From Alphaproteobacteria bacterium (GTDB lineage Bacteria > Pseudomonadota > Alphaproteobacteria > Bin95), in the NCBI GenBank assembly GCA_963665325.3, contig OZ224045.1:896001-960000 (forward strand): a stretch of DNA of 64,000 nt. The letters are read 5' to 3'. The position numbers and the translations under genes are program-made. This document shows, piece after piece, positions 6,528 to 18,599 of this stretch. The notes under the pieces are model-generated. The model was not told the origin of the DNA. It ran no database searches and saw nothing but the letters and a program-made list of their open reading frames with translations. The stretch's first letter is position 1; each line of letters starts with the position of its first letter.

Positions 6528-6923
6528 TCAGACCCGCCGCCCCCGCGCAAGGCGTTCCTTCCGCTGCAAGCCGTGGCGCTCCAGGAAGCGCTGTACCGTG
6601 GCGGCGCTGACGGTCAGGCCCTCGACCGCCAGCGCGGCCCGCAGCGCCGGGATGGTTAGCTTCGGGCGCTGCTTCAGCAGGCGGAACACCAGTGCGCGCG
6701 CCGGCTCGATCCGAGACGGCGGGCGTCGGCGCGGGTCCGCCCGGACATTGCCGCGCTGGCGGTAGCGCTGGACCCACCGATGGACGCTGGTCTGGGCGAC
6801 CTCGAATTTCAGCGCCGCTTCGCGAAAGCTCATGCCCCGCTCGAGCACCGCCGCCACCGCCCGGCGGCGCAGGTCCTCGCCTACCGCCTTGCCCGGCTTC
6901 GGCCCCGCCAATTCGTCCGCCAT
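6528..6923 (-). CDS. IS630-family OrfA-like HTH protein without the DDE domain
   Basis: DLRRRAVAAVLERGMSFREAALKFEVAQTSVHRWV...PKLTIPALRAALAVEGLTVSAATVQRFLERHGL; no catalytic ORF follows. Confidence 0.65.
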   Translation of the reverse strand: MADELAGPKPGKAVGEDLRRRAVAAVLERGMSFREAALKFEVAQTSVHRWVQRYRQRGNVRADPRRRPPSRIEPARALVFRLLKQRPKLTIPALRAALAVEGLTVSAATVQRFLERHGLQRKERLARGRRV

Positions 6924-7314
6924 CCTGTCCGCCCTCCTTTCCATCGCCGTTTCCGCCGGCCGCCGTTCCAGCCTGTTTGCGTTGTCTGCGCGGGCCGCGG
7001 GCCGCTGCCGTTCCAGGCCCGACGATTTAATGCCCTCCGCCGCGCGCACCTGTCCGGTTGAGCGTCCGCCCCTCGATACAGCTCCCAAATCCCTCGCGAG
7101 GCGCCGCCCGGCGCCCCGGCTCACGTCCACGTCATCGCCTCGTTTCCTCGCGGTTGGCACGGGTATTGGGGGTATATAGGGAACAAACAGGCAAGATGCA
7201 AGGAATTTGAGGAATTTATGCCGGATTTCGGGGTGCGAGACTCCGTCCGCCGCTTCCGCCGGGGCGCTGCGTCACGCTCCGCCCCCAATGTCGCCAGGCC
7301 TGTTCCCGTCCTTT

Positions 7315-7401
7315 CCGTCATGCCCGGACTTGTTCCGGGCATCTCCCTCGGGGCCACTGCGATGGCGGAAATGGATGCCCGGATCAAAGCCGGAGCATGT
7401 C
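7315..7401. repeat. REP/REPIN-like palindromic doublet
   Basis: GTCATGCCCGGACTTGTTCCGGGCATC (7317-7343) and degenerate inverted GATGCCCGGATCAAAGCCGGAGCATGTC (7374-7401). Confidence 0.7.
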
Positions 7402-7659
7402 GTGATCGAATCTCGTAACTGACTAGACTCATTGAAGAATTCACCCTTGAATTGATGGTGTGGAAGCCATAATCCTAAATCAGTCATCAAGTCGAAAGCA
7501 GAATTTTTCAATATCAGGTCGGCCGTCGGCAGCGTCTGGCAACGCATTACCATTTTCGAGCGTCGAGGCCAATGTAACCGTTCGGGTCCCGGGGGATCGT
7601 AGCCTCCCACTGATTTTTCTCACTGGTAACTAAGTCGCGCATGCGCTACCGTCTCGCGC

Positions 7660-9825
7660 ATGGCGGTTCTCGAGGCGGATTTCGTCACCGACCTGACGCC
7701 GGCCGAGGGCGGCGACATGCTGTGGTCGCTTCCCGTCGTGGCGCCGGCGCGCGAGCCGCTCGACTGGGCGTCTCTGCTTGAAGAGGCGGAGGCGCGCGTC
7801 AAGGAGGAACGGGGCCGCGCGGCTGTGGCGGAGTTGCGCCGCGAGGAACTGCGCCGGTCGGAGAGCGATGCCCGAGCGCTTGCGGACTCGCTGACGAGGC
7901 AGCTCGACACCTGCCGGTTCAAGCTCAAGACGGCGACCTCGAAGACCGCGTCGCGGGCCGCGAAGGGGTTGGAGCGCAGGGTCGAGTCCCAGGACGACGA
8001 AATCGCCGATCTTCGCCTCACGCTGCGCAGGTCTCACGAGCGCCAGGAGCGGATCGAAAAACGCCACCAGGACGAGATCAACTGGCTGAAGCAGGACATC
8101 GACCGGGAGCGCTCGCGGATCGCGAAGGTGTACCGCAAGGGCGAGCGCGTGGCCGGGTCGCTGCGCAAGCAGTTCGACCGGCAGCTCGCGGCGGCCAGGC
8201 GGCTGGTGGAGACCCGGGAGGGCACGATCGCATGGCTGCGCGAACGCAACGCCCGGATGCGGGCGGCGATCGTGCGGGCCACGGAGCTGATCGCCTCGCT
8301 GCGGGAGAAGAATACCCGGCTGCGCGCCGAGGTGCGGGATCTGAAGGACGAGAACGCGGCGCTGGCCTCGCAGGTCGAGACGCTGCAAGCCCAGCTCGAC
8401 AAGCTGCGCTCGACCCGGAGCGTCCTGTCGAAGGCGCTCTACGGCAGCAGGAGCGAGCAGCAGAAGAGGCCGGGCACCGGGCGCAAGCGCGGCCAGCAGC
8501 GCGGCGCCGCCGGGCACGGCCGCACCCAGCGCCCCGGGCTCGGGCAGAAGAAGGAACCGCGCGACCCGCCTGAGGAAGCGCGTGTGTGTCCGCGTTGCGG
8601 CAAGCCCTACGCCGCCAACGGCGAGCGCTGCACCACTCTCTTCGAGATCGATGTCGAGGCCTACGAGAACACCATCGTGCGGTCGCGCTGGCGCCACAGT
8701 TGCGACTGCGCCTCCGCGCCGCGGGAGGTGACCGCGCCGCCGGTGACGCGGCTGTTCGAGACCACGCCCTACGGGATCAGCGTATGGACGTGCATGCTCT
8801 ACGAGCGCTTCGTCTGCTGCCGTCCCCTGCATCGGGTCGCGGCCTGGCTGGCCGACATGGGGCTGGCGATCTCGCCGGGGACCCTGGCCGACAGCATCAA
8901 GCGCTTCGTGCCGCTGTTCGAACCGTTGGCCGAGGCGATCCTCGCGCACCAGAACGAGGCCGCGCTGCGCCACGCCGACGAAACATCCTGGCGCGTTCAG
9001 GCGTATCGCGAGAAAGGCCGGTCGAGCCGCGCCTGGTTGTGGATCTCGGTCAGCAACGATGCCGTCTACTTCCACATCGACCCCTCGCGCAGCGCCGAGG
9101 TCGCGATGAAGCTGTTCGGTTCGGTCAAGGATACCGTGGTCCTGGTCTGCGACCGGTTCAGCGCCTACAGGAAGCTGGCTCGCGAACTCGCCGGCAAGGT
9201 GATCCTGCAATGGTGCTGGGCACATCAAAGGCGCTCGTTCATCGACCGTGCCGCCGGTCATGTGCGGCTCAGGCGCTGGTGCCAGAGATGGATCGAGCGG
9301 ATCGCGCTGATCTACCGGCTGAACGACGATCGGCTGGAGCATTACGACCCCGCTCACCCCCTCGAACGACAGTCGCCGGCGTTCGATATCGCGCACGCCA
9401 AGCTGAAGAAGGAGGTCGACGAGCTGTTCGCAGCCGCCGAAGCGGAACTGGCCGGGCTGACGGACAGGGCGCGCAGGGCCAAGCCGCTGCGCTCGCTTCT
9501 CAACCACCGCGGGGGGCTGTGCGTCTTCGTCGACAAGCCGTTCGTGCCCATGGACAACAACCGCGGCGAGCTCTCGTTGCGCTTCGCGGTTATCGGACGA
9601 CGGCTCTCGTTCGGCTCCGACAGCGAGAAAGGCGCCGGGTTCACGGCGACGATGTACTCGGTGGCTGGCACGCTGGCGATCAACGGCATCGACGTCCGGC
9701 GCTGGCTCAGGGAATGGCTGACCGCGTGCGCGGAAAACGGCGGCAATCCGCCGGACGACCTCTCGCCCTGGCTGCCGTGGTCGATGAGCGAGGAGCGCCG
9801 GCGCGAACTCACGGCGTCGGGATGA
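7660..9825 (+). CDS. IS66-family DDE transposase (TnpC-like) with long N-terminal coiled coil
   Basis: YGSRSE, Zn finger CPRC...HSCDC, HADET, LVCDRFSAY, CWAHQRR, DNNRGELSLR. Confidence 0.93.
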   Translation: MAVLEADFVTDLTPAEGGDMLWSLPVVAPAREPLDWASLLEEAEARVKEERGRAAVAELRREELRRSESDARALADSLTRQLDTCRFKLKTATSKTASRAAKGLERRVESQDDEIADLRLTLRRSHERQERIEKRHQDEINWLKQDIDRERSRIAKVYRKGERVAGSLRKQFDRQLAAARRLVETREGTIAWLRERNARMRAAIVRATELIASLREKNTRLRAEVRDLKDENAALASQVETLQAQLDKLRSTRSVLSKALYGSRSEQQKRPGTGRKRGQQRGAAGHGRTQRPGLGQKKEPRDPPEEARVCPRCGKPYAANGERCTTLFEIDVEAYENTIVRSRWRHSCDCASAPREVTAPPVTRLFETTPYGISVWTCMLYERFVCCRPLHRVAAWLADMGLAISPGTLADSIKRFVPLFEPLAEAILAHQNEAALRHADETSWRVQAYREKGRSSRAWLWISVSNDAVYFHIDPSRSAEVAMKLFGSVKDTVVLVCDRFSAYRKLARELAGKVILQWCWAHQRRSFIDRAAGHVRLRRWCQRWIERIALIYRLNDDRLEHYDPAHPLERQSPAFDIAHAKLKKEVDELFAAAEAELAGLTDRARRAKPLRSLLNHRGGLCVFVDKPFVPMDNNRGELSLRFAVIGRRLSFGSDSEKGAGFTATMYSVAGTLAINGIDVRRWLREWLTACAENGGNPPDDLSPWLPWSMSEERRRELTASG

Positions 9826-10703
9826 CCGGCGCGGTCGAGTGCCGCTACCACGGCCGAGACTTCACCGCCGAGGAAATGGCGCTGCTGCGCGCGCTCATCG
9901 CCGGTCCCGCATCGCTCTCCCGCCGCGCCCTGTCGATCGAGTTCTGCCGGCGCATCGGCTGGATCAAGCCCGACGGCGGGCTCAAGGATATGATGGCCCG
10001 CGTCACCATGCTCGCCATGCACCGCGACGGCCTCATCGAACTGCCGCCGCCCAGGTGGCAGCGGGGACGGCCCAGGCCCATCGTCTTCGGACCCGACACC
10101 GAGCCGCCGCTGTTCCCCGCGCCCACGACCCTCGACGAGGTCCGTCCGCTCGACTTCCGCGCCGTCGTGCACAGCACCCGGGAAGGCAGGCTCTGGAACG
10201 AGTTCGTCGCCCGCTACCATTATCTCGGATACAAGACCCTGGTCGGCGCCCAGATGCGCTACGCCGTCCACGACCGAAACGGCTGGCCCGTCGCCATGCT
10301 CGGCTTCTCCACCGCCGCCTGGAAGCTCGCCCCGCGCGACAACTTCATCGGATGGTCGCCCGAAAAGCGCGAGAAGAACCTCCCGCTCGTGGTCGACAAC
10401 CCGCGCTTCCTGATATTGCCGTGGATCCAGATCCCCAACCTCGGATCGCACATCCTCGCCATCGTGCGCCGGCGCCTGCCCACCGACTGGACCGAGCGCT
10501 ACGGCACCACCCCCGTGCTGATCGAAACCTTCGTCGAGACCCCGCGATACACCGGCGCCGTCTACAAGGCGTCGGGCTGGACCCGCGTCGGGACCACCCA
10601 GGGCCGTGGCCGCTACGACAGGCATACCAAACGAGCTCAGCCGAAAAAGGACATCTGGCTCCGCCCCCTCCGAAAAGATTGGCAACGCACCCTCAATCGG
10701 TAG
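9822..10703 (+). CDS. DUF4338 (DruA-like, Mom/GNAT-like) protein inside IS66
   Basis: RYHYLGY, RDNFIGW, NPRFLILPW, NLGSHIL, ETFVETPRYTGAVYKASGW, GTTQGRGR; ATGA-coupled to the transposase stop. Confidence 0.85.
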   Translation: MTGAVECRYHGRDFTAEEMALLRALIAGPASLSRRALSIEFCRRIGWIKPDGGLKDMMARVTMLAMHRDGLIELPPPRWQRGRPRPIVFGPDTEPPLFPAPTTLDEVRPLDFRAVVHSTREGRLWNEFVARYHYLGYKTLVGAQMRYAVHDRNGWPVAMLGFSTAAWKLAPRDNFIGWSPEKREKNLPLVVDNPRFLILPWIQIPNLGSHILAIVRRRLPTDWTERYGTTPVLIETFVETPRYTGAVYKASGWTRVGTTQGRGRYDRHTKRAQPKKDIWLRPLRKDWQRTLNR

Positions 10704-10838
10704 AATCACACCCGGTCGCGACCAGGTGCGGGTAAGCATGCCAACAAGCGGATAACCTCCTCCTCATCCCCCGGGACCCGAACGGTTACAGGCCAATTCG
10801 AGGCCGAATTGGGTGAGAACCGATTCATTCGTATACGT

Positions 10839-11669
10839 TCACGTCTCGTCCAGAGCGATCCTTACGCTGTTTTCTCCATGGGTGATGAGCTTTCTGTCCT
10901 CTTGGGGCCCTTCGGCGAAGACGACGCCCTGGAGGATCAGAGCCCTTCTCGCGCTGCCGTCCATCGGTAACTCGATTGTCCAGACCGCACTGCCGCTTAC
11001 GCCACCATGGGTCCGGGGAATCCACGGATCGTCGCTCGTAATGGCGTACTCACCGTAGTCCCAACCATCCTCGTCTGTCGCCTGTTCTGCTGTCCTGCCT
11101 ATCAGCATGCCGTGGGCGACCACCATGTTCTCGCCCAGGTCGCTCGCGGCGTGGACGAATCCGAAAACAATTCCGATCTGGCATACTTCGCCCTCGAACG
11201 CATCGCGCGGTCTCGCCCTGTTGCGGAAGACGGCACCAAGTGCCTCCATCCTCTCCACATCTTCTCCCGACAAGGGCATCCAGCCGATATCCGGACCCAA
11301 CGGCCCTTGGTTGGCTTCTCCCCGGCCTGTCATGCCCGCGCCTTCAATCCTGATCCAGTTGACCAGTTCTCGGTCCTGGGCCGGGAGCACGAGGATGTTC
11401 TGCCTGGCCTTGACGGCGCCGATGACGTGCCCGGCCGTCAGAATGCCATGCTGGCCATCGGTTCTTCTGACAAACGTTCCGGAACCGATTGGTGTCAGCT
11501 GCCCCTCCGCGCCGTAACCGATGATCGTCGTGTATCGGCGTACGAGATCGGCCAGGATCCGCGGCGCAGTCTCGGGATTCAACTGGTCCTCCTGGAAGAT
11601 ACCGGTCCTCGCAAGGTAGCCCGAAACTTCGGACCAGCCGGCGGTCACGATCGCGGGTTCTGGAGCCAT
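10839..11669 (-). CDS. Trypsin-like serine protease domain protein
   Basis: GSGTFV, ILTAGHVI (His), PDIG (Asp), GGVSGSAV (Ser); no signal peptide seen. Confidence 0.6.
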   Translation of the reverse strand: MAPEPAIVTAGWSEVSGYLARTGIFQEDQLNPETAPRILADLVRRYTTIIGYGAEGQLTPIGSGTFVRRTDGQHGILTAGHVIGAVKARQNILVLPAQDRELVNWIRIEGAGMTGRGEANQGPLGPDIGWMPLSGEDVERMEALGAVFRNRARPRDAFEGEVCQIGIVFGFVHAASDLGENMVVAHGMLIGRTAEQATDEDGWDYGEYAITSDDPWIPRTHGGVSGSAVWTIELPMDGSARRALILQGVVFAEGPQEDRKLITHGENSVRIALDET

Positions 11670-11975
11670 GATGCATTCCGTTCTGTTCGGTGGCGGGTCA
11701 TACTGGGAGATGGTGGGCGATTGGAAATCTGAGGCCGGCGGGTTTGGGCGAAGTCTATAGGGATGCGGTGCTCTTCGGGCGGCGATGGCGTTGTGCAACG
11801 TGATGTGGCGGGATGGGCATGGTCTAGCCGGATGTATTCACGTCGATTAAATCGGAGGGTTTGGAGCGCGCAGGGGTGGGCGTTCGGCGCCGCTACGGTG
11901 CCGGGATCTGAAGTTTTCGAAGTCGAAGTTGAGGGTTGAGCCGGCTCGGGTTGGTGGGGCACGCCGCCCCGTCGG

Positions 11976-12855
11976 TCAGGGTCCCGAGGTCGCGAACCGG
12001 CCCGCCAGCAGCCGGAACAGGGCGGCGTCGGGGCAGGCCGAGGTGAAGTGGATGCGGATGCGCGCGGCCTTCTCGACGACGCGCGCGCCTATCTTGAGCA
12101 GTTTCTGGCGGAGGGCTGCGAACTCGGCCAAGTGGAGCGGCATCCTGCGCGGCACGGCATCGCGGAGCGCGAGCATCAGCCAGTAGGCGGCGATGTGCAG
12201 GACCAGCCTGAACTGGTTGGCGAGCGGGCCCTGGCAGGAGGTGCGGTCGGAGGCGAGCTGGGCCTTGTGCAACTTGATGAGGTTTTCCGCCTGGCCGCGG
12301 GCGCAGTAGATCCCTTCGTAGAGATGGCGGGGCTCGCCGGTGAGCGAGGTGACGATGTAGCGCGCGTCGAAGCCGCGGGTCGTCGCCTCCAGCCGGGCGA
12401 CCACGCGGCGCGCGCGGTTCCACGAGCCGGCGGCGTAGGCGAAGTCGTCGAAGCCGCGGACCTTGTCGCCACCGGCTTCGGCGTGGCGCGCCCGGACCTC
12501 CTCGCCGGACTCGTCGGCGAGGCGGTGCAGCACCGCATTGCCGGCCAGGCCGAAGATATAGTCGACGCCGTTGTCCTCGCACCATGCCATCGCCTCGGTC
12601 CGACCGTAGTGGCTGTCGCCCCGGAAGGTGAGCCGGGTGCGCGGCCAGTGCCGGCGGATGCGCCGCGTCAGATGCTTGAGCATGGTGCGGACCTCGACCC
12701 CCGACGGCGTCTTGCCGGGGCGCGGGAGAACCGCCACCGGCCTGCCGCTCTCGACATGGTAGACGTGCACCGGGAGGAAGCAGCGGGTGTCATGGAAGCC
12801 GTTGAACAGCGAGAGTTGCTGGTGGCCGTGCACCGCGTCGCAGGTCTCGTCGATG
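11976..12855 (-). pseudogene. IS1380 transposase, 3' part
   Basis: HGHQQLSLFNG, FRGDSHY, YCARGQAENLIK, DRTSC, ANQFRL. Confidence 0.9.
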
Positions 12856-12941
12856 GTAACCGTTCGGGTCCCGGGGGATGAGGAGGAGGTTATCCGCTTG
12901 TTGGCATGCTTACCCGCACCTGGTCGCGACCGGGTGTGATT

Positions 12942-13823
12942 CTACCGATTGAGGGTGCGTTGCCAATCTTTTCGGAGGGGGCGGAGCCAGATGTCCTTTT
13001 TCGGCTGAGCTCGTTTGGTATGCCTGTCGTAGCGGCCACGGCCCTGGGTGGTCCCGACGCGGGTCCAGCCCGACGCCTTGTAGACGGCGCCGGTGTATCG
13101 CGGGGTCTCGACGAAGGTTTCGATCAGCACGGGGGTGGTGCCGTAGCGCTCGGTCCAGTCGGTGGGCAGGCGCCGGCGCACGATGGCGAGGATGTGCGAT
13201 CCGAGGTTGGGGATCTGGATCCACGGCAATATCAGGAAGCGCGGGTTGTCGACCACGAGCGGGAGGTTCTTCTCGCGCTTTTCGGGCGACCATCCGATGA
13301 AGTTGTCGCGCGGGGCGAGCTTCCAGGCGGCGGTGGAGAAGCCGAGCATGGCGACGGGCCAGCCGTTTCGGTCGTGGACGGCGTAGCGCATCTGGGCGCC
13401 GACCAGGGTCTTGTATCCGAGATAATGGTAGCGGGCGACGAACTCGTTCCAGAGCCTGCCTTCCCGGGTGCTGTGCACGACGGCGCGGAAGTCGAGCGGA
13501 CGGACCTCGTCGAGGGTCGTGGGCGCGGGGAACAGCGGCGGCTCGGTGTCGGGTCCGAAGACGATGGGCCTGGGCCGTCCCCGCTGCCACCTGGGCGGCG
13601 GCAGTTCGATGAGGCCGTCGCGGTGCATGGCGAGCATGGTGACGCGGGCCATCATATCCTTGAGCCCGCCGTCGGGCTTGATCCAGCCGATGCGCCGGCA
13701 GAACTCGATCGACAGGGCGCGGCGGGAGAGCGATGCGGGACCGGCGATGAGCGCGCGCAGCAGCGCCATTTCCTCGGCGGTGAAGTCTCGGCCGTGGTAG
13801 CGGCACTCGACCGCGCCGGTCAT
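12942..13823 (-). CDS. DUF4338 protein, copy 2
   Basis: Translation identical to 9822-10703. Confidence 0.85.
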   Translation of the reverse strand: MTGAVECRYHGRDFTAEEMALLRALIAGPASLSRRALSIEFCRRIGWIKPDGGLKDMMARVTMLAMHRDGLIELPPPRWQRGRPRPIVFGPDTEPPLFPAPTTLDEVRPLDFRAVVHSTREGRLWNEFVARYHYLGYKTLVGAQMRYAVHDRNGWPVAMLGFSTAAWKLAPRDNFIGWSPEKREKNLPLVVDNPRFLILPWIQIPNLGSHILAIVRRRLPTDWTERYGTTPVLIETFVETPRYTGAVYKASGWTRVGTTQGRGRYDRHTKRAQPKKDIWLRPLRKDWQRTLNR

Positions 13824-15985
13824 CCCGACGCCGTGAGTTCGCGCCGGCGCTCCTCGCTCATCGACCACGGCAGCCAGGGCGAGAGGTCGTCCGGCGGATT
13901 GCCGCCGTTTTCCGCGCACGCGGTCAGCCATTCCCTGAGCCAGCGCCGGACGTCGATGCCGTTGATCGCCAGCGTGCCAGCCACCGAGTACATCGTCGCC
14001 GTGAACCCGGCGCCTTTCTCGCTGTCGGAGCCGAACGAGAGCCGTCGTCCGATAACCGCGAAGCGCAACGAGAGCTCGCCGCGGTTGTTGTCCATGGGCA
14101 CGAACGGCTTGTCGACGAAGACGCACAGCCCCCCGCGGTGGTTGAGAAGCGAGCGCAGCGGCTTGGCCCTGCGCGCCCTGTCCGTCAGCCCGGCCAGTTC
14201 CGCTTCGGCGGCTGCGAACAGCTCGTCGACCTCCTTCTTCAGCTTGGCGTGCGCGATATCGAACGCCGGCGACTGTCGTTCGAGGGGGTGAGCGGGGTCG
14301 TAATGCTCCAGCCGATCGTCGTTCAGCCGGTAGATCAGCGCGATCCGCTCGATCCATCTCTGGCACCAGCGCCTGAGCCGCACATGACCGGCGGCACGGT
14401 CGATGAACGAGCGCCTTTGATGTGCCCAGCACCATTGCAGGATCACCTTGCCGGCGAGTTCGCGAGCCAGCTTCCTGTAGGCGCTGAACCGGTCGCAGAC
14501 CAGGACCACGGTATCCTTGACCGAACCGAACAGCTTCATCGCGACCTCGGCGCTGCGCGAGGGGTCGATGTGGAAGTAGACGGCATCGTTGCTGACCGAG
14601 ATCCACAACCAGGCGCGGCTCGACCGGCCTTTCTCGCGATACGCCTGAACGCGCCAGGATGTTTCGTCGGCGTGGCGCAGCGCGGCCTCGTTCTGGTGCG
14701 CGAGGATCGCCTCGGCCAACGGTTCGAACAGCGGCACGAAGCGCTTGATGCTGTCGGCCAGGGTCCCCGGCGAGATCGCCAGCCCCATGTCGGCCAGCCA
14801 GGCCGCGACCCGATGCAGGGGACGGCAGCAGACGAAGCGCTCGTAGAGCATGCACGTCCATACGCTGATCCCGTAGGGCGTGGTCTCGAACAGCCGCGTC
14901 ACCGGCGGCGCGGTCACCTCCCGCGGCGCGGAGGCGCAGTCGCAACTGTGGCGCCAGCGCGACCGCACGATGGTGTTCTCGTAGGCCTCGACATCGATCT
15001 CGAAGAGAGTGGTGCAGCGCTCGCCGTTGGCGGCGTAGGGCTTGCCGCAACGCGGACACACACGCGCTTCCTCAGGCGGGTCGCGCGGTTCCTTCTTCTG
15101 CCCGAGCCCGGGGCGCTGGGTGCGGCCGTGCCCGGCGGCGCCGCGCTGCTGGCCGCGCTTGCGCCCGGTGCCCGGCCTCTTCTGCTGCTCGCTCCTGCTG
15201 CCGTAGAGCGCCTTCGACAGGACGCTCCGGGTCGAGCGCAGCTTGTCGAGCTGGGCTTGCAGCGTCTCGACCTGCGAGGCCAGCGCCGCGTTCTCGTCCT
15301 TCAGATCCCGCACCTCGGCGCGCAGCCGGGTATTCTTCTCCCGCAGCGAGGCGATCAGCTCCGTGGCCCGCACGATCGCCGCCCGCATCCGGGCGTTGCG
15401 TTCGCGCAGCCATGCGATCGTGCCCTCCCGGGTCTCCACCAGCCGCCTGGCCGCCGCGAGCTGCCGGTCGAACTGCTTGCGCAGCGACCCGGCCACGCGC
15501 TCGCCCTTGCGGTACACCTTCGCGATCCGCGAGCGCTCCCGGTCGATGTCCTGCTTCAGCCAGTTGATCTCGTCCTGGTGGCGTTTTTCGATCCGCTCCT
15601 GGCGCTCGTGAGACCTGCGCAGCGTGAGGCGAAGATCGGCGATTTCGTCGTCCTGGGACTCGACCCTGCGCTCCAACCCCTTCGCGGCCCGCGACGCGGT
15701 CTTCGAGGTCGCCGTCTTGAGCTTGAACCGGCAGGTGTCGAGCTGCCTCGTCAGCGAGTCCGCAAGCGCTCGGGCATCGCTCTCCGACCGGCGCAGTTCC
15801 TCGCGGCGCAACTCCGCCACAGCCGCGCGGCCCCGTTCCTCCTTGACGCGCGCCTCCGCCTCTTCAAGCAGAGACGCCCAGTCGAGCGGCTCGCGCGCCG
15901 GCGCCACGACGGGAAGCGACCACAGCATGTCGCCGCCCTCGGCCGGCGTCAGGTCGGTGACGAAATCCGCCTCGAGAACCGCCAT
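13820..15985 (-). CDS. IS66-family transposase, copy 2
   Basis: Translation identical to 7660-9825. Confidence 0.93.
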   Translation of the reverse strand: MAVLEADFVTDLTPAEGGDMLWSLPVVAPAREPLDWASLLEEAEARVKEERGRAAVAELRREELRRSESDARALADSLTRQLDTCRFKLKTATSKTASRAAKGLERRVESQDDEIADLRLTLRRSHERQERIEKRHQDEINWLKQDIDRERSRIAKVYRKGERVAGSLRKQFDRQLAAARRLVETREGTIAWLRERNARMRAAIVRATELIASLREKNTRLRAEVRDLKDENAALASQVETLQAQLDKLRSTRSVLSKALYGSRSEQQKRPGTGRKRGQQRGAAGHGRTQRPGLGQKKEPRDPPEEARVCPRCGKPYAANGERCTTLFEIDVEAYENTIVRSRWRHSCDCASAPREVTAPPVTRLFETTPYGISVWTCMLYERFVCCRPLHRVAAWLADMGLAISPGTLADSIKRFVPLFEPLAEAILAHQNEAALRHADETSWRVQAYREKGRSSRAWLWISVSNDAVYFHIDPSRSAEVAMKLFGSVKDTVVLVCDRFSAYRKLARELAGKVILQWCWAHQRRSFIDRAAGHVRLRRWCQRWIERIALIYRLNDDRLEHYDPAHPLERQSPAFDIAHAKLKKEVDELFAAAEAELAGLTDRARRAKPLRSLLNHRGGLCVFVDKPFVPMDNNRGELSLRFAVIGRRLSFGSDSEKGAGFTATMYSVAGTLAINGIDVRRWLREWLTACAENGGNPPDDLSPWLPWSMSEERRRELTASG

Positions 15986-16071
15986 GCGCGAGACGGTAGC
16001 GCATGCGCGACTTAGTTACCAGTGAGAAAAATCAGTGGGAGGCTACGATCCCCCGGGACCCGAACGGTTAC

Positions 16072-16540
16072 CGTCGATGTCGAGCGTGATCGCCGCCGGC
16101 GGGGACGCGAAGGAGCGGCAGAAGATGTCGACCAGGGCGGCCGTCAGGCGCCCCGTCTCGCTACTGGACGGCGCGTTCTCCAGCCGGCTCATGGTAGGCT
16201 GCGAACAGAGATCGCGGCCGCTCTCCGGCGCCCGGCCGACCGCCAGCTTGAACAGCGGATCGGCGCGCAGGTCGTCGCAATCGTCGGCGTCCTCATACCC
16301 GCAGGCGATCGCGAACATGCGGAACCGAAGCATCGCCGGCAGGCTGTGGACGACCCGGTCGGGGTCGCGCCATTCCCGGATGCAGCCGGCCAGCGTCTCG
16401 GCCAGGCCGAGCCGGCGCTCCGCCCCGCGCAGCAGGACCAGCCCACCGTCCGACGAGATCGAACCGCCGGCGAAATCGGCAGTCACCTTCTTGCGGCTTA
16501 CGGCTGGAAGATCGAACGGGAGAAGGGTATCATCGGTCAT
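16072..16540 (-). pseudogene. IS1380 transposase, 5' part
   Basis: FAGGSISSDGGLVLL, GYEDADDCDDLRADP, SQPTMSRLEN, ITLDID; rejoins in frame as LDID-ETCDAVHG when one TSD copy is removed. Confidence 0.9.
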
Positions 16541-16865
16541 GGCGGGCGTGGCGCTTTCGTTGCTTCGGCAGAAATGCGCTGGGAAACGAATTTCTACCCG
16601 AATCCAACGGGTTACGCCACGTTCGCCACCATGCCTTCAGACCCTGATGAATACATCAGGTTAGACCGGTTGCCGGGGCAGGTCAATGGCGAGTACTCGA
16701 CATGGCGAGTACTCGGCTGTATTCCGTCTGACACTTCTGTCCGACGCCCAGCAAGAGGATTATCTCGACGATGTTTGGCAGGTCTCGCATATTTCTGCCA
16801 TCGTTGAAAACCGTATTAGAAGGCTAATGACAACTGGGCTCCGAACAACAAAGGACTAATGGTAA

Positions 16866-17519
16866 ATGCCATCAAGCGCACTAAGGAAGTTCGAAGGCCC
16901 AATGATGCGGGATGTTGAGCGCATTATTGCGACGCATGCGGATATGCAGGCAGGGAGCCCTGGGAACATGGGACTTGGGCATCTGACAAGAGCAGGCGTT
17001 CTTTTCCTATGCGCCGCATGGGAATTATACATTGAGGAAGTGCTGAATGAAAGTATCAAACACTGCATCCAGAAGAGTTCGTCACCTGAAGATCTCCCAA
17101 AAACGGTAAAGAAGACAATTTCCCAATACGTACGTGATTCCAAACATCAACTCAAGCCAATCGGTATGGCAGGAGACGGCTGGAAAACGATTTACTCTGA
17201 AATCGCTAGCGAATGGGTCGTCGGACTCAATACACCCAAATCTCACAATATCGATCAAGGTTTTCGTACACTCGTGGGTATTGAAAAATTATCTGAAAAC
17301 TGGTCTTTAGGGGCCGCCGTAGTGAATAGCTTCGTCGAAGTTAGAGGGGATATAGCGCACCGTGGATCGGATGCAGGCAACGTTCATATGAGTACGTTGA
17401 AGAATGCCTATAAAGAACAAATTACAAAATGTGTCCTTGAAACAGATAATGCTTTATCGAATTACATCAGGAATGCGTTTTCTCCTACAAGCTATCCATG
17501 GAACCGGCGTCAAATATAG
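16866..17519 (+). CDS. HEPN-domain protein (RiboL-PSP/MAE_28990-like)
   Basis: RAGVLFLCAAWELYIEE, LNTP, and RGDIAH (Rx4H); AT-rich. Confidence 0.7.
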   Translation: MPSSALRKFEGPMMRDVERIIATHADMQAGSPGNMGLGHLTRAGVLFLCAAWELYIEEVLNESIKHCIQKSSSPEDLPKTVKKTISQYVRDSKHQLKPIGMAGDGWKTIYSEIASEWVVGLNTPKSHNIDQGFRTLVGIEKLSENWSLGAAVVNSFVEVRGDIAHRGSDAGNVHMSTLKNAYKEQITKCVLETDNALSNYIRNAFSPTSYPWNRRQI

Positions 17520-17819
17520 TCTTCGTATTCGTTACTTGGGCAGATCGGCTAATTGCAGTCTGCGGTCGGGTTCTGTAGTCAAGCAGCATACTAAGATCCA
17601 CGCTGGGGCAGGATCATGCTTCTGTATACGGTTAGCCCGGTGGCCGCCGGTAGCTTGGGTCAAGCGCGGGGGGGCGGGTCAATCCAGCGGTCGGGCTCAC
17701 GAGGTGGCTCAGCAATTTTCTCGACCTCACCCATTTCGGTTTTCCCTGGCCTCGGGACATCTGCTACGCGGGTTCTTCTAAGTGATCGCTCGCAGCTGCC
17801 TTTTGCTCGCCGGGGGGCG

Positions 17820-17907
17820 GCGGAAGACGTGATGGCCCGTCCATATCCTGTGAAGCATGATCGCCAGCTTCGTGGTGACCGCGAATACGGCTCTCTTCTG
17901 TCGCCGG
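17820..17907 (-). pseudogene. Degenerate IS110-family transposase C-terminus
   Basis: Manual translation RRQKRAVFAVTTKLAIMLHRIWTGHHVFR resembles the IS110 AVARKLAVILHRMW motif. Confidence 0.5.
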
Positions 17908-18599
17908 CGCCGCGCTACGCGAATTCCGCAGCTCTTGTGGACCGATGGCCTGGCGCGGTGCCCGGAACCACCCCAAGCTTGTGTCCCGGCCGCAAAGCGG
18001 GAGCGGTCGCTGTCTCGGATCGGTGCACCCCGCGCCCCCTACGGGCGCGCGGGGTGGCCGCAGTTCGTCTCCCGGCCCCAAAGTCGGAGCGGTTGTCGTC
18101 CTCGGTCTTACGGGGGATCGCAACAGCGCGGCGGACGTCCTGATCCATCGGGCGTCTCGGCGGGTCGTGGATTGCTTCGGTTCTGCGGGCACCTGATGAA
18201 TGAACGCCGACCGGTCATCAAATCGAATGCGGGTGTTTTCAATACCGGGACTTGGGCGGGCGACACATGGCGCTGAAACACCATTTTGGCGCGCGGGGGC
18301 AAGGTCCAGGCTGCTATCGGCAGCAATTCAGCGGAGCGGCATCCAGCCGCCACAGGAAATCGCTCCGGACTCGCTGACCGCAAGCAGGCCCTCCGGAAGA
18401 GCATGGGGGCGGCGACAACGGTGTTGCGGTACGCACTGGAACGCAGCGCCTCGAATTCCCATATCGACGATAGTGAGCATGCGGCCGGCCGACCGCATGC
18501 GGCTGGCGCTGGACGGCTCGCGCGTCTTCCGGCTCGGGCAGCGGCGCAGCCTGGCGGCGTCGCTGGGAGGCAGTTTCGTCCGCGACGGAGGGGACGGCG

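Follow-up and report, generated by a model that had tools for sequence, protein, structure and literature searches.

Insertion sequences are generally regarded as requiring hardly more than a transposase, and how the IS66 family transposes is still poorly understood. Canonical members of this family (IS66, IS679) carry the genes tnpA-tnpB-tnpC between inverted repeats (IRs) of roughly 20-30 bp that begin with GTAAGCG or a similar sequence, and they produce an 8-bp target duplication; in the ISBst12 group of the same family, the transposase is the only gene. Here, we describe a 3216-bp IS66-type element at positions 7574-10789 of a 64,000-nucleotide stretch of DNA from an Alphaproteobacteria bacterium (assembly GCA_963665325.3, contig OZ224045.1, forward-strand positions 896,001-960,000; hereafter the window, meaning this whole stretch). 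The element carries two overlapping genes, one for an IS66-type DDE transposase and one for a DUF4338 (DruA-family) protein with a predicted GNAT domain, and belongs, as an intact representative, to a two-gene IS66 subgroup that is widespread. Two further systems are relevant for comparison. Mom of phage Mu is a Gly-tRNA(Gly)-dependent N6-adenine DNA modifier that counters restriction of phage DNA (PMC13219725, cited here and below from the available part of that paper), and DUF4338 is described as a GNAT domain that has been reported in fusion to DndF (PMC10853773, likewise in its available part).

The element starts with GTAACCGTTCGGGTCCCGGGGGAT and finishes with the exact reverse complement of this sequence, forming a perfect 24-bp IR in both of the copies found in the window. 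The second copy is 100% identical to the first, lies in inverted orientation and is separated from it by 2066 nt. Each copy has its own 8-bp target duplication, AGGCCAAT on both sides of copy 1 and the different octamer CGTCGATG on both sides of copy 2, and the probability that such a duplication arises by chance is ~1.5e-5 per element. On direct reading of the ends, the coordinates, the perfect repeats and the two distinct duplications were exactly as given in the initial annotation, which had been made from the sequence and its open reading frames (ORFs). The main features are as follows.

7566-7573, no strand: left target-site duplication of copy 1 (AGGCCAAT), the same octamer as at 10790-10797
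7574-7597, plus strand: left terminal IR of copy 1, 24 bp (GTAACCGTTCGGGTCCCGGGGGAT), perfect reverse complement of 10766-10789
7660-9825, plus strand: IS66-type DDE transposase gene, 721 aa (P0002; PF03050, NF033517)
9822-10703, plus strand: DUF4338/DruA-family gene, 293 aa (P0001; PF14236; AlphaFold 2 (AF2) model)
10766-10789, minus strand: right terminal IR of copy 1, reverse complement of the left IR
10790-10797, no strand: right target-site duplication of copy 1 (AGGCCAAT; direct reading)
12848-12855, no strand: target-site duplication of copy 2 (CGTCGATG; direct reading), within an interrupted IS1380-type transposase gene (PF13701)
12856-16071, minus strand: copy 2 of the element, with transposase gene 13820-15985 (minus strand) and DUF4338 gene 12942-13823 (minus strand), 100% identical to copy 1
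16072-16079, no strand: other target-site duplication of copy 2 (CGTCGATG; direct reading)

Non-coding DNA is confined to 86 bp between the start of the left IR and the transposase start and 86 bp between the stop of the second ORF and the right end. Because these ends leave no room for them, tnpA and tnpB are absent from the element, as had been claimed. The further wording that the DUF4338 gene "replaces" tnpA/tnpB holds as a description of the layout and not as a demonstrated functional substitution. Three 100% identical copies are present in the genome in total, the third at C1:437326-440541, and from their identity, together with the distinct target duplications of two of them, we infer that the element transposed recently. 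The same genome also holds three copies of a relative with 79% DNA identity and the same two-gene layout (3415 bp), as well as further element fragments on contig C2.

The second ORF (9822-10703) matches PF14236 DruA (formerly DUF4338) with an E-value of 4.2e-39 over residues 108-268, and its start overlaps the stop of the transposase gene in an ATGA at 9822-9825. A scan for relatives with one genome per species returned at least 450 matched stretches, among which at least 358 relatives of the DUF4338 protein were confirmed. The best 79 loci, with DUF4338 proteins 82-95% identical to the one described here, were fetched and, with three loci from the window's own genome, make up a set of 82. 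In all 79 related loci an IS66-type transposase frame overlapped the DUF4338 start by 4 nt (76 ATGA, 3 GTGA), bearing out the proposal that the DUF4338 gene is an integral, ATGA-coupled part of the element. The survey of such gene pairs within IRs that the initial annotation had suggested gave a similar picture: IRs with at least 14 matched bases enclosed both genes in 62/82 loci, of which 37, all at different sites, had a perfect 8-bp duplication and 25 had an IR and no duplication; the other 20 had no detectable IR or too short a flank. Among these relatives the IRs start with GTAAGCG, GTAAGCC, GAAAGCG, GTATCCG and similar sequences (GTAACCG in this element), and element length ranges from 3.08 to 3.79 kb.

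Selection on the two genes was compared in the loci with both frames intact (59/81), which represent 38 distinct elements and 703 pairs. The median ratio of non-synonymous to synonymous substitution rates (dN/dS) over these pairs, which are not independent of one another, came to 0.23 in the DUF4338 gene, compared with 0.44 in the transposase core (its last 440 codons). The dS medians were similar (0.43 and 0.51, respectively), indicating that the two genes evolve together. The DUF4338 gene is clearly under purifying selection, is more constrained than the transposase core and co-diverges with the transposase; the breadth of this result is tempered by the choice of the 79 loci, which were picked by their similarity (82-95% identity) to this DUF4338 protein and hence represent one clade.

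The genomes that carry these relatives (loci L011-L089) are metagenome-assembled genomes (MAGs) labelled Alpha-/Gammaproteobacteria, Bryobacterales and unclassified bacteria, and many of them hold 5-10 element copies each. This distribution, at 82-95% identity of the DUF4338 protein, points to recent horizontal spread and transposition bursts. Head-to-tail tandem pairs, with right and left ends 8-9 bp apart (0 bp at one more L037 junction), were present in 5/62 loci with recognisable IRs (L005/L006, at C3:1012101-1017843, L030, L037 and L070), and paired element matches were seen additionally in L026 and L079. Such tandem pairs resemble the dimers or circle junctions of copy-out-paste-in insertion sequence families, or preferred insertion at the end of a resident copy.

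DDE transposases of several unrelated families repeatedly have the DUF4338 module as a partner. When 1.84 billion representative proteins were searched, 8555 clusters (50% identity) matched at E ≤ 0.001, 1025 of them at E ≤ 1e-30, and ten long matches from this search were examined with Pfam. Three carried the module at the C-terminus of an IS66 transposase (P0074, P0080, P0045) and five at the N-terminus of a Tn5-like/IS4 transposase (P0099, P0131, P0144, P0152, P0116); in a ninth protein, P0150, it is N-terminal to an IS630-type transposase, and the tenth, P0079, had no Pfam match. The Tn5-like, IS630 and IS66 fusions are 37-46% identical over module residues ~7-291. Fusions to ISAs1-type transposases retain the GNAT part alone, which in WP_216644545.1, a protein from a Thiodictyon plasmid annotated as "ISAs1 family transposase", is found at the N-terminus. 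In an even sample of the phylum, PF14236 was present in 24/401 genomes. Among the 28 foreign PF14236 loci were 8 ISAs1-type fusions, 3 loci that adjoin Tn5-like transposases and 1 with a weak IS66-like match downstream; 5 had no similarity to the transposase queries, and 11 were too short or contained the module alone. In the genome described here, 7/7 initial PF14236 candidates are copies or fragments of the element.

One further locus, on a Thiodictyon plasmid (L090, NZ_CP020372.1 277572-288441), contains a DUF2235 gene split in two, between whose halves lie a lone DUF4338 gene and an IS4-family transposase, themselves separated by an inserted integrase and IS91 transposase. The arrangement resembles a DUF4338 + IS4 element of two genes that subsequently received a further insertion.

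The first ORF (7660-9825) matches PF03050 (2.1e-51) and the "IS66 family transposase" model NF033517 (1.7e-73, 247.9 bits with a cut-off of 180, residues 281-689), which confirms its assignment to the IS66 family. A coiled-coil extension (residues ~1-270) is followed by a CxxC...CxC region (~310-350) and the DDE domain (372-659); the N-terminal ~270 residues match coiled-coil families alone, weakly, at 180-258. The PF03050 score of this transposase type is ~180 bits, whereas the canonical tnpC genes in this genome reach 299-323 bits. The genome has TnpB-containing canonical IS66 units elsewhere, on contig C4, and matches to TnpB (PF05717) were found on C4, on C2 and at C1:2284610, with none in this element. 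Only one source name, the generic "IS66 family transposase", appeared among the 120 best transposase relatives listed.

The initial annotation had proposed a resemblance between the DUF4338 protein and Mom and had recommended a structural comparison with Mom and GNATs. The AF2 model, built from a 33-sequence alignment, has a predicted local distance difference test score (pLDDT) of 92.2 and consists of a small helical N-terminal domain (~1-75), a linker and a GNAT-fold domain (~108-293). A Foldseek search of the PDB gave no fewer than 292 matches with E ≤ 0.001, every listed one a GNAT; Mom of phage Mu (8bv8_B) ranked second, with the highest TMq among the matches listed (0.43) and 16% identity. 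In a library of viral structures, ranks 1-3 and 5 were taken by phage proteins of the size of Mom (166-238 aa), an annotated Mom ranked sixth (E 1.4e-7), GNATs fused to endonuclease-like proteins appeared from rank 10, and the first match named as an acetyltransferase stood at rank 29 (1.8e-5). Based on these models, the C-terminal domain is confidently predicted to adopt a GNAT fold, with Mom among its closest structural neighbours, in line with what had been proposed. At the sequence level, Pfam searches with 33 relatives identified Mom (PF25680) as the only family besides DruA that was matched by more than one of them (16/33, best E 0.0023).

The residues of Mom reported to be important or essential are H58, Y59, R111, S124, D149, R151 and Y159 (PMC13219725). 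In an alignment of profiles with hhalign, Mom H58/Y59, S124, D149, R151 and Y159 pair with H133/Y134, S209, E239, R242 and Y248 of the DUF4338 protein. Six of these seven active-site residues therefore align to conserved DUF4338 positions; of 57-61 diverse representatives, 50-59 retain them, as do 8/8 fusions examined. The segment TFV...GAVYKASGW, singled out in the initial annotation, aligns with Mom FADERCGRAGVVYQASNF, a stretch that includes D149, R151 and Y159. The local resemblance claimed for this segment is thus recovered, although overall sequence similarity is weak, and any sequence-level kinship between the DUF4338 protein and Mom would be remote.

Several observations weigh against a Mom-like, DNA-modifying protein. 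The DUF4338 protein itself (P0001) has no Pfam match to Mom at E ≤ 10. The hhalign comparison of DUF4338 and Mom profiles, although it covers the whole domain, has an E-value of 0.0032 and a probability of just 9.8% (E 0.023 and 2% against a single Mom sequence), and reciprocal hmmsearch runs reached at most 10.3 bits (shuffles 1.5) and 9.4 bits (shuffles 6.2). Foldseek E-values in the PDB do not set Mom apart from ordinary GNATs. The essential R111 of Mom falls in an alignment gap, with the invariant R195 of DUF4338 a few residues off. Mom also carries a helix-turn-helix (HTH)-like insertion (~175-209) that is essential for activity (PMC13219725); this insertion is absent here, with ~23 residues (roughly 171-193) lying opposite a gap in the DUF4338 profile. 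The N-terminal domain (residues 1-105, AF2 pLDDT 62) had no Foldseek match in the PDB at E ≤ 0.001 (best 1.8), and DNA binding by this domain is only a guess. Finally, DNA modification by the DUF4338 protein is itself something that we infer by analogy.

The top sub-threshold matches of the N-terminal domain were homeodomain-like three-helix DNA binders, including the I-gamma subdomain of Mu transposase, and a modelled HTH-like fold for this domain is only a suggestion. Searching the ESM Atlas with DUF4338 residues 1-100 gave no usable match. A profile search of solved structures returned a plant defensin as its sole match (E 1.1), which was discarded as meaningless. Complex prediction for transposase residues 270-721 with the DUF4338 protein scored 0.00 in both runs, which counts neither for nor against an interaction.

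The following mechanism is proposed on this basis. The transposase, a divergent IS66 DDE enzyme with a long N-terminal coiled coil, is translated first, and at the ATGA overlap ribosomes probably re-initiate on the DUF4338 gene. Because stop and start overlap, both proteins would probably be made together and in low amounts. The second protein would then be an accessory part of the transposition machinery with catalytic activity, as opposed to cargo, and would act beside the transposase on nucleic acid, a substrate suggested by the analogy with Mom and by the DNA-directed contexts of the family (Druantia, Dnd). It may attach acyl or aminoacyl groups to DNA, either at the element ends or the target or close to them, with acyl-CoA or, as in Mom, charged tRNA as candidate donors, and the resulting mark could time, limit or direct transposition. 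Dam methylation acts in this way on the transposition of IS10 and IS50. Our preferred model, which we hold tentatively, is that transposition is controlled through such acyl or aminoacyl marks on the DNA of the ends or target. A more far-reaching version is doubtful: at least five unrelated DDE families (IS66, Tn5-like/IS4, IS630, ISAs1 and the IS4-type two-gene form) would have recruited one and the same Mom-like acyltransferase acting on nucleic acid, so that covalent acylation or aminoacylation of DNA bases is built into transposition control. A transposon of this kind would place its own chemical mark on its ends or target and use it for sensing replication, establishing immunity or selecting targets; extended to defence, the same reading would give type I Druantia its missing self-marking enzyme in the form of DruA.

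The GNAT fold could instead belong to a protein acetyltransferase that acylates the transposase or a host nucleoid or replication protein, with the acetyl-CoA state switching transposition on and off. Most characterised GNATs acylate proteins or small molecules, the top fold matches in the PDB include SpeG, RimL and protein acetyltransferases, and fusion to transposases suits a cis-acting protein modifier just as well. However, acetyltransferase families of Pfam were matched by none of the 33 relatives, 16 of which matched Mom, and the viral structures that come nearest are GNATs either resembling Mom or fused to nucleases. The canonical acetyl-coenzyme A (CoA) pyrophosphate-binding motif of GNATs, Q/R-x-x-G-x-G/A after strand 4, also appears to be replaced, as the stretch matching it in the DUF4338 alignment reads R/Q-x-x-N-x-A/G-S (by eye, with L following the N). 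Furthermore, the module occurs in DNA-directed defence contexts (Druantia, by its Pfam name, and the DndF fusions of PMC10853773). On balance, we consider modification of a protein unlikely.

Rather less probable still is a passenger gene with a benefit of its own, which would be unneeded for transposition and would provide genome-wide modification against restriction or other defence, or a DruA-like defence. The protection that Mom gives phage DNA (PMC13219725) offers a precedent, PF14236 is named for a Druantia component, and 82-95% identity across MAGs labelled as different phyla fits frequent horizontal transfer. An overlap of 4 nt in 79/79 loci is nevertheless unusual for cargo genes, and a passenger would not be expected to appear in in-frame fusions to transposases of four further families. 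DruB-E genes do not accompany the DUF4338 gene, all 7 PF14236 candidates in this genome are copies or fragments of the element, and coupling to the transposase would imply very low expression, ill-suited to genome-wide protection.

A non-catalytic adaptor, in which the GNAT fold is a scaffold for binding to DNA, tRNA or a host factor so that the transpososome is tethered or targeted, would agree with the position-independence of the module, which like many targeting domains is found in N- or C-terminal fusions, and with the retention of the GNAT part alone in ISAs1 fusions. Conservation of Mom-active-site-like residues in 50-59 of 57-61 representatives and in 8/8 fusions goes beyond what a scaffold needs, making this explanation quite improbable. 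A tRNA-directed GNAT toxin that acetylates charged tRNA like TacT and AtaT and stabilises the element by damaging cells in which control over it is lost is highly improbable: Mom and GNAT toxins both handle the charged tRNA 3' end (PMC13219725), but the 86-bp non-coding ends leave no room for an antitoxin-like gene, and a free toxin is hard to reconcile with in-frame transposase fusion.

As a conserved and selected enzyme of the Mom/GNAT type that is joined to several unrelated kinds of transposase, the DUF4338 protein would represent a novel type of accessory factor for transposition and, if it modifies DNA, the first transposon-encoded base-hypermodifying enzyme. The element also provides a handle on DruA, the uncharacterised DUF4338 component behind the Pfam family name, and its relatives are small, testable two-gene systems for finding the donor and acceptor of the enzyme. 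Such elements are abundant in MAGs, where they are annotated merely as "IS66 family transposase" and "DUF4338 domain-containing protein".

Beyond the two genes, two candidate signals were found by consensus scans near the ends of copy 1.

7591-7608, plus strand: terminator-like hairpin with T-run just inside the left end (4 found in the scan vs 2.2 expected from shuffles)
10679-10706, plus strand: outward-facing promoter-like site, TTGGCA-16-TAGAAT, ~60 bp inside the right end (1 found vs 0.2 expected from shuffles)

The hairpin, a sequence-based prediction, may stop outside transcription from reading into the element. The promoter-like site (10/12 consensus match) overlaps the 3' part of the DUF4338 gene and, judged by its consensus match alone, would be directed into the following transposase gene when the element is tandem or circular. 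No credible RNA family was found with Rfam in window 7300-11000, where the single match was to a microRNA model (E 0.048) under the gathering score.

The third identical copy (C1:437326-440541, in locus L003, C1:437132-442753) has no target duplication and its flanks are hybrid. On its left, 194 bp are identical to window 7378-7571 and stop 2 nt before the copy-1 junction; on its right, a 2211-bp stretch has 98.4% identity with the DNA to the right of copy 2 (window 16072-18282) and the same join position. This arrangement suggests an IS-mediated rearrangement, an adjacent deletion or recombination on a duplicated segment. A composite transposon formed by the two inverted window copies was also considered and ruled out, because both copies have separate, intact target duplications and the 2066 bp lying between the copies occur only once in the genome.

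The neighbourhood of the element is rich in insertion sequences. Copy 2 splits an IS1380-type (DDE_Tnp_1_4) transposase gene, of which ORF 11976-12833 (minus strand) on the left side encodes the C-terminal 285 aa (PF13701, 2.5e-98, covering profile positions 151-429 alone), and ORF 16043-16540 (minus strand) on the right may be the N-terminal part. Between the copies, a 319-aa ORF (10839-11798, minus strand) has no Pfam match at E ≤ 0.001; its TAGHV and GGVSGS motifs, noted by eye, recall a trypsin-like serine protease, for which it is a candidate. To the left of copy 1, a 210-aa ORF (6528-7160, minus strand) matches IS630/Tc3-type HTH domains only and is probably a transposase remnant.

The association of DUF4338 with transposases is broad, its function is open to several readings, and an IS66-type element with a coupled DUF4338 gene is apparently undescribed, no description having been found. 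A literature search, with ISfinder and paper supplements outside its scope, found nothing linking DUF4338/DruA to transposases. DUF4338 goes unmentioned in the available parts of the Mom papers PMC7261163 and PMC13219725, where transposons come up only in connection with a mutagenesis library. PMC13639185 was considered as a possible DruA-transposase link and rejected, as it concerns Druantia III only. NCBIfam contains no family for the DUF4338 protein.

Compared to known systems, the element shares with the IS66 family an IS66-type DDE transposase, ~24-bp IRs beginning GTAA(C/G)CG and an 8-bp target duplication. Unlike canonical IS66, it lacks tnpA and tnpB, its transposase has an added N-terminal coiled coil of ~270 aa, and a gene for a DUF4338 protein with a predicted Mom-like GNAT domain is coupled downstream. 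Elements of the ISBst12 group also lack tnpA and tnpB, but the element described here has two genes, the second of which is conserved, coupled (79/79 relatives) and under purifying selection. With Mom of Mu (8bv8, PF25680), the DUF4338 protein has in common the predicted GNAT fold and the aligned H-Y, S, D/E-x-x-R and Y positions and C-terminal segments. It differs in its low identity (~16%), a match below Pfam significance, the absence of the HTH-like insertion and an extra N-terminal domain, and whereas Mom is encoded in a phage late operon with com, the DUF4338 gene belongs to a transposon. By sequence comparison, the protein is therefore best described as Mom-like but outside the Mom family itself. 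DruA of type I Druantia belongs to the same Pfam family (PF14236, 4.2e-39), yet the PADLOC DruA model was matched weakly (1.9e-5, 21.9 bits), no druB-druE neighbours are present, and the gene lies between IRs with a transposase as its sole companion, the same companion as in 79/79 relatives. The fused DUF4338-transposases (Tn5-like/IS4, IS630 and ISAs1) contain the same module with the same conserved residues; there, the module forms a single polypeptide with a transposase of another family, whereas here it is encoded by a separate gene coupled behind an IS66 transposase.

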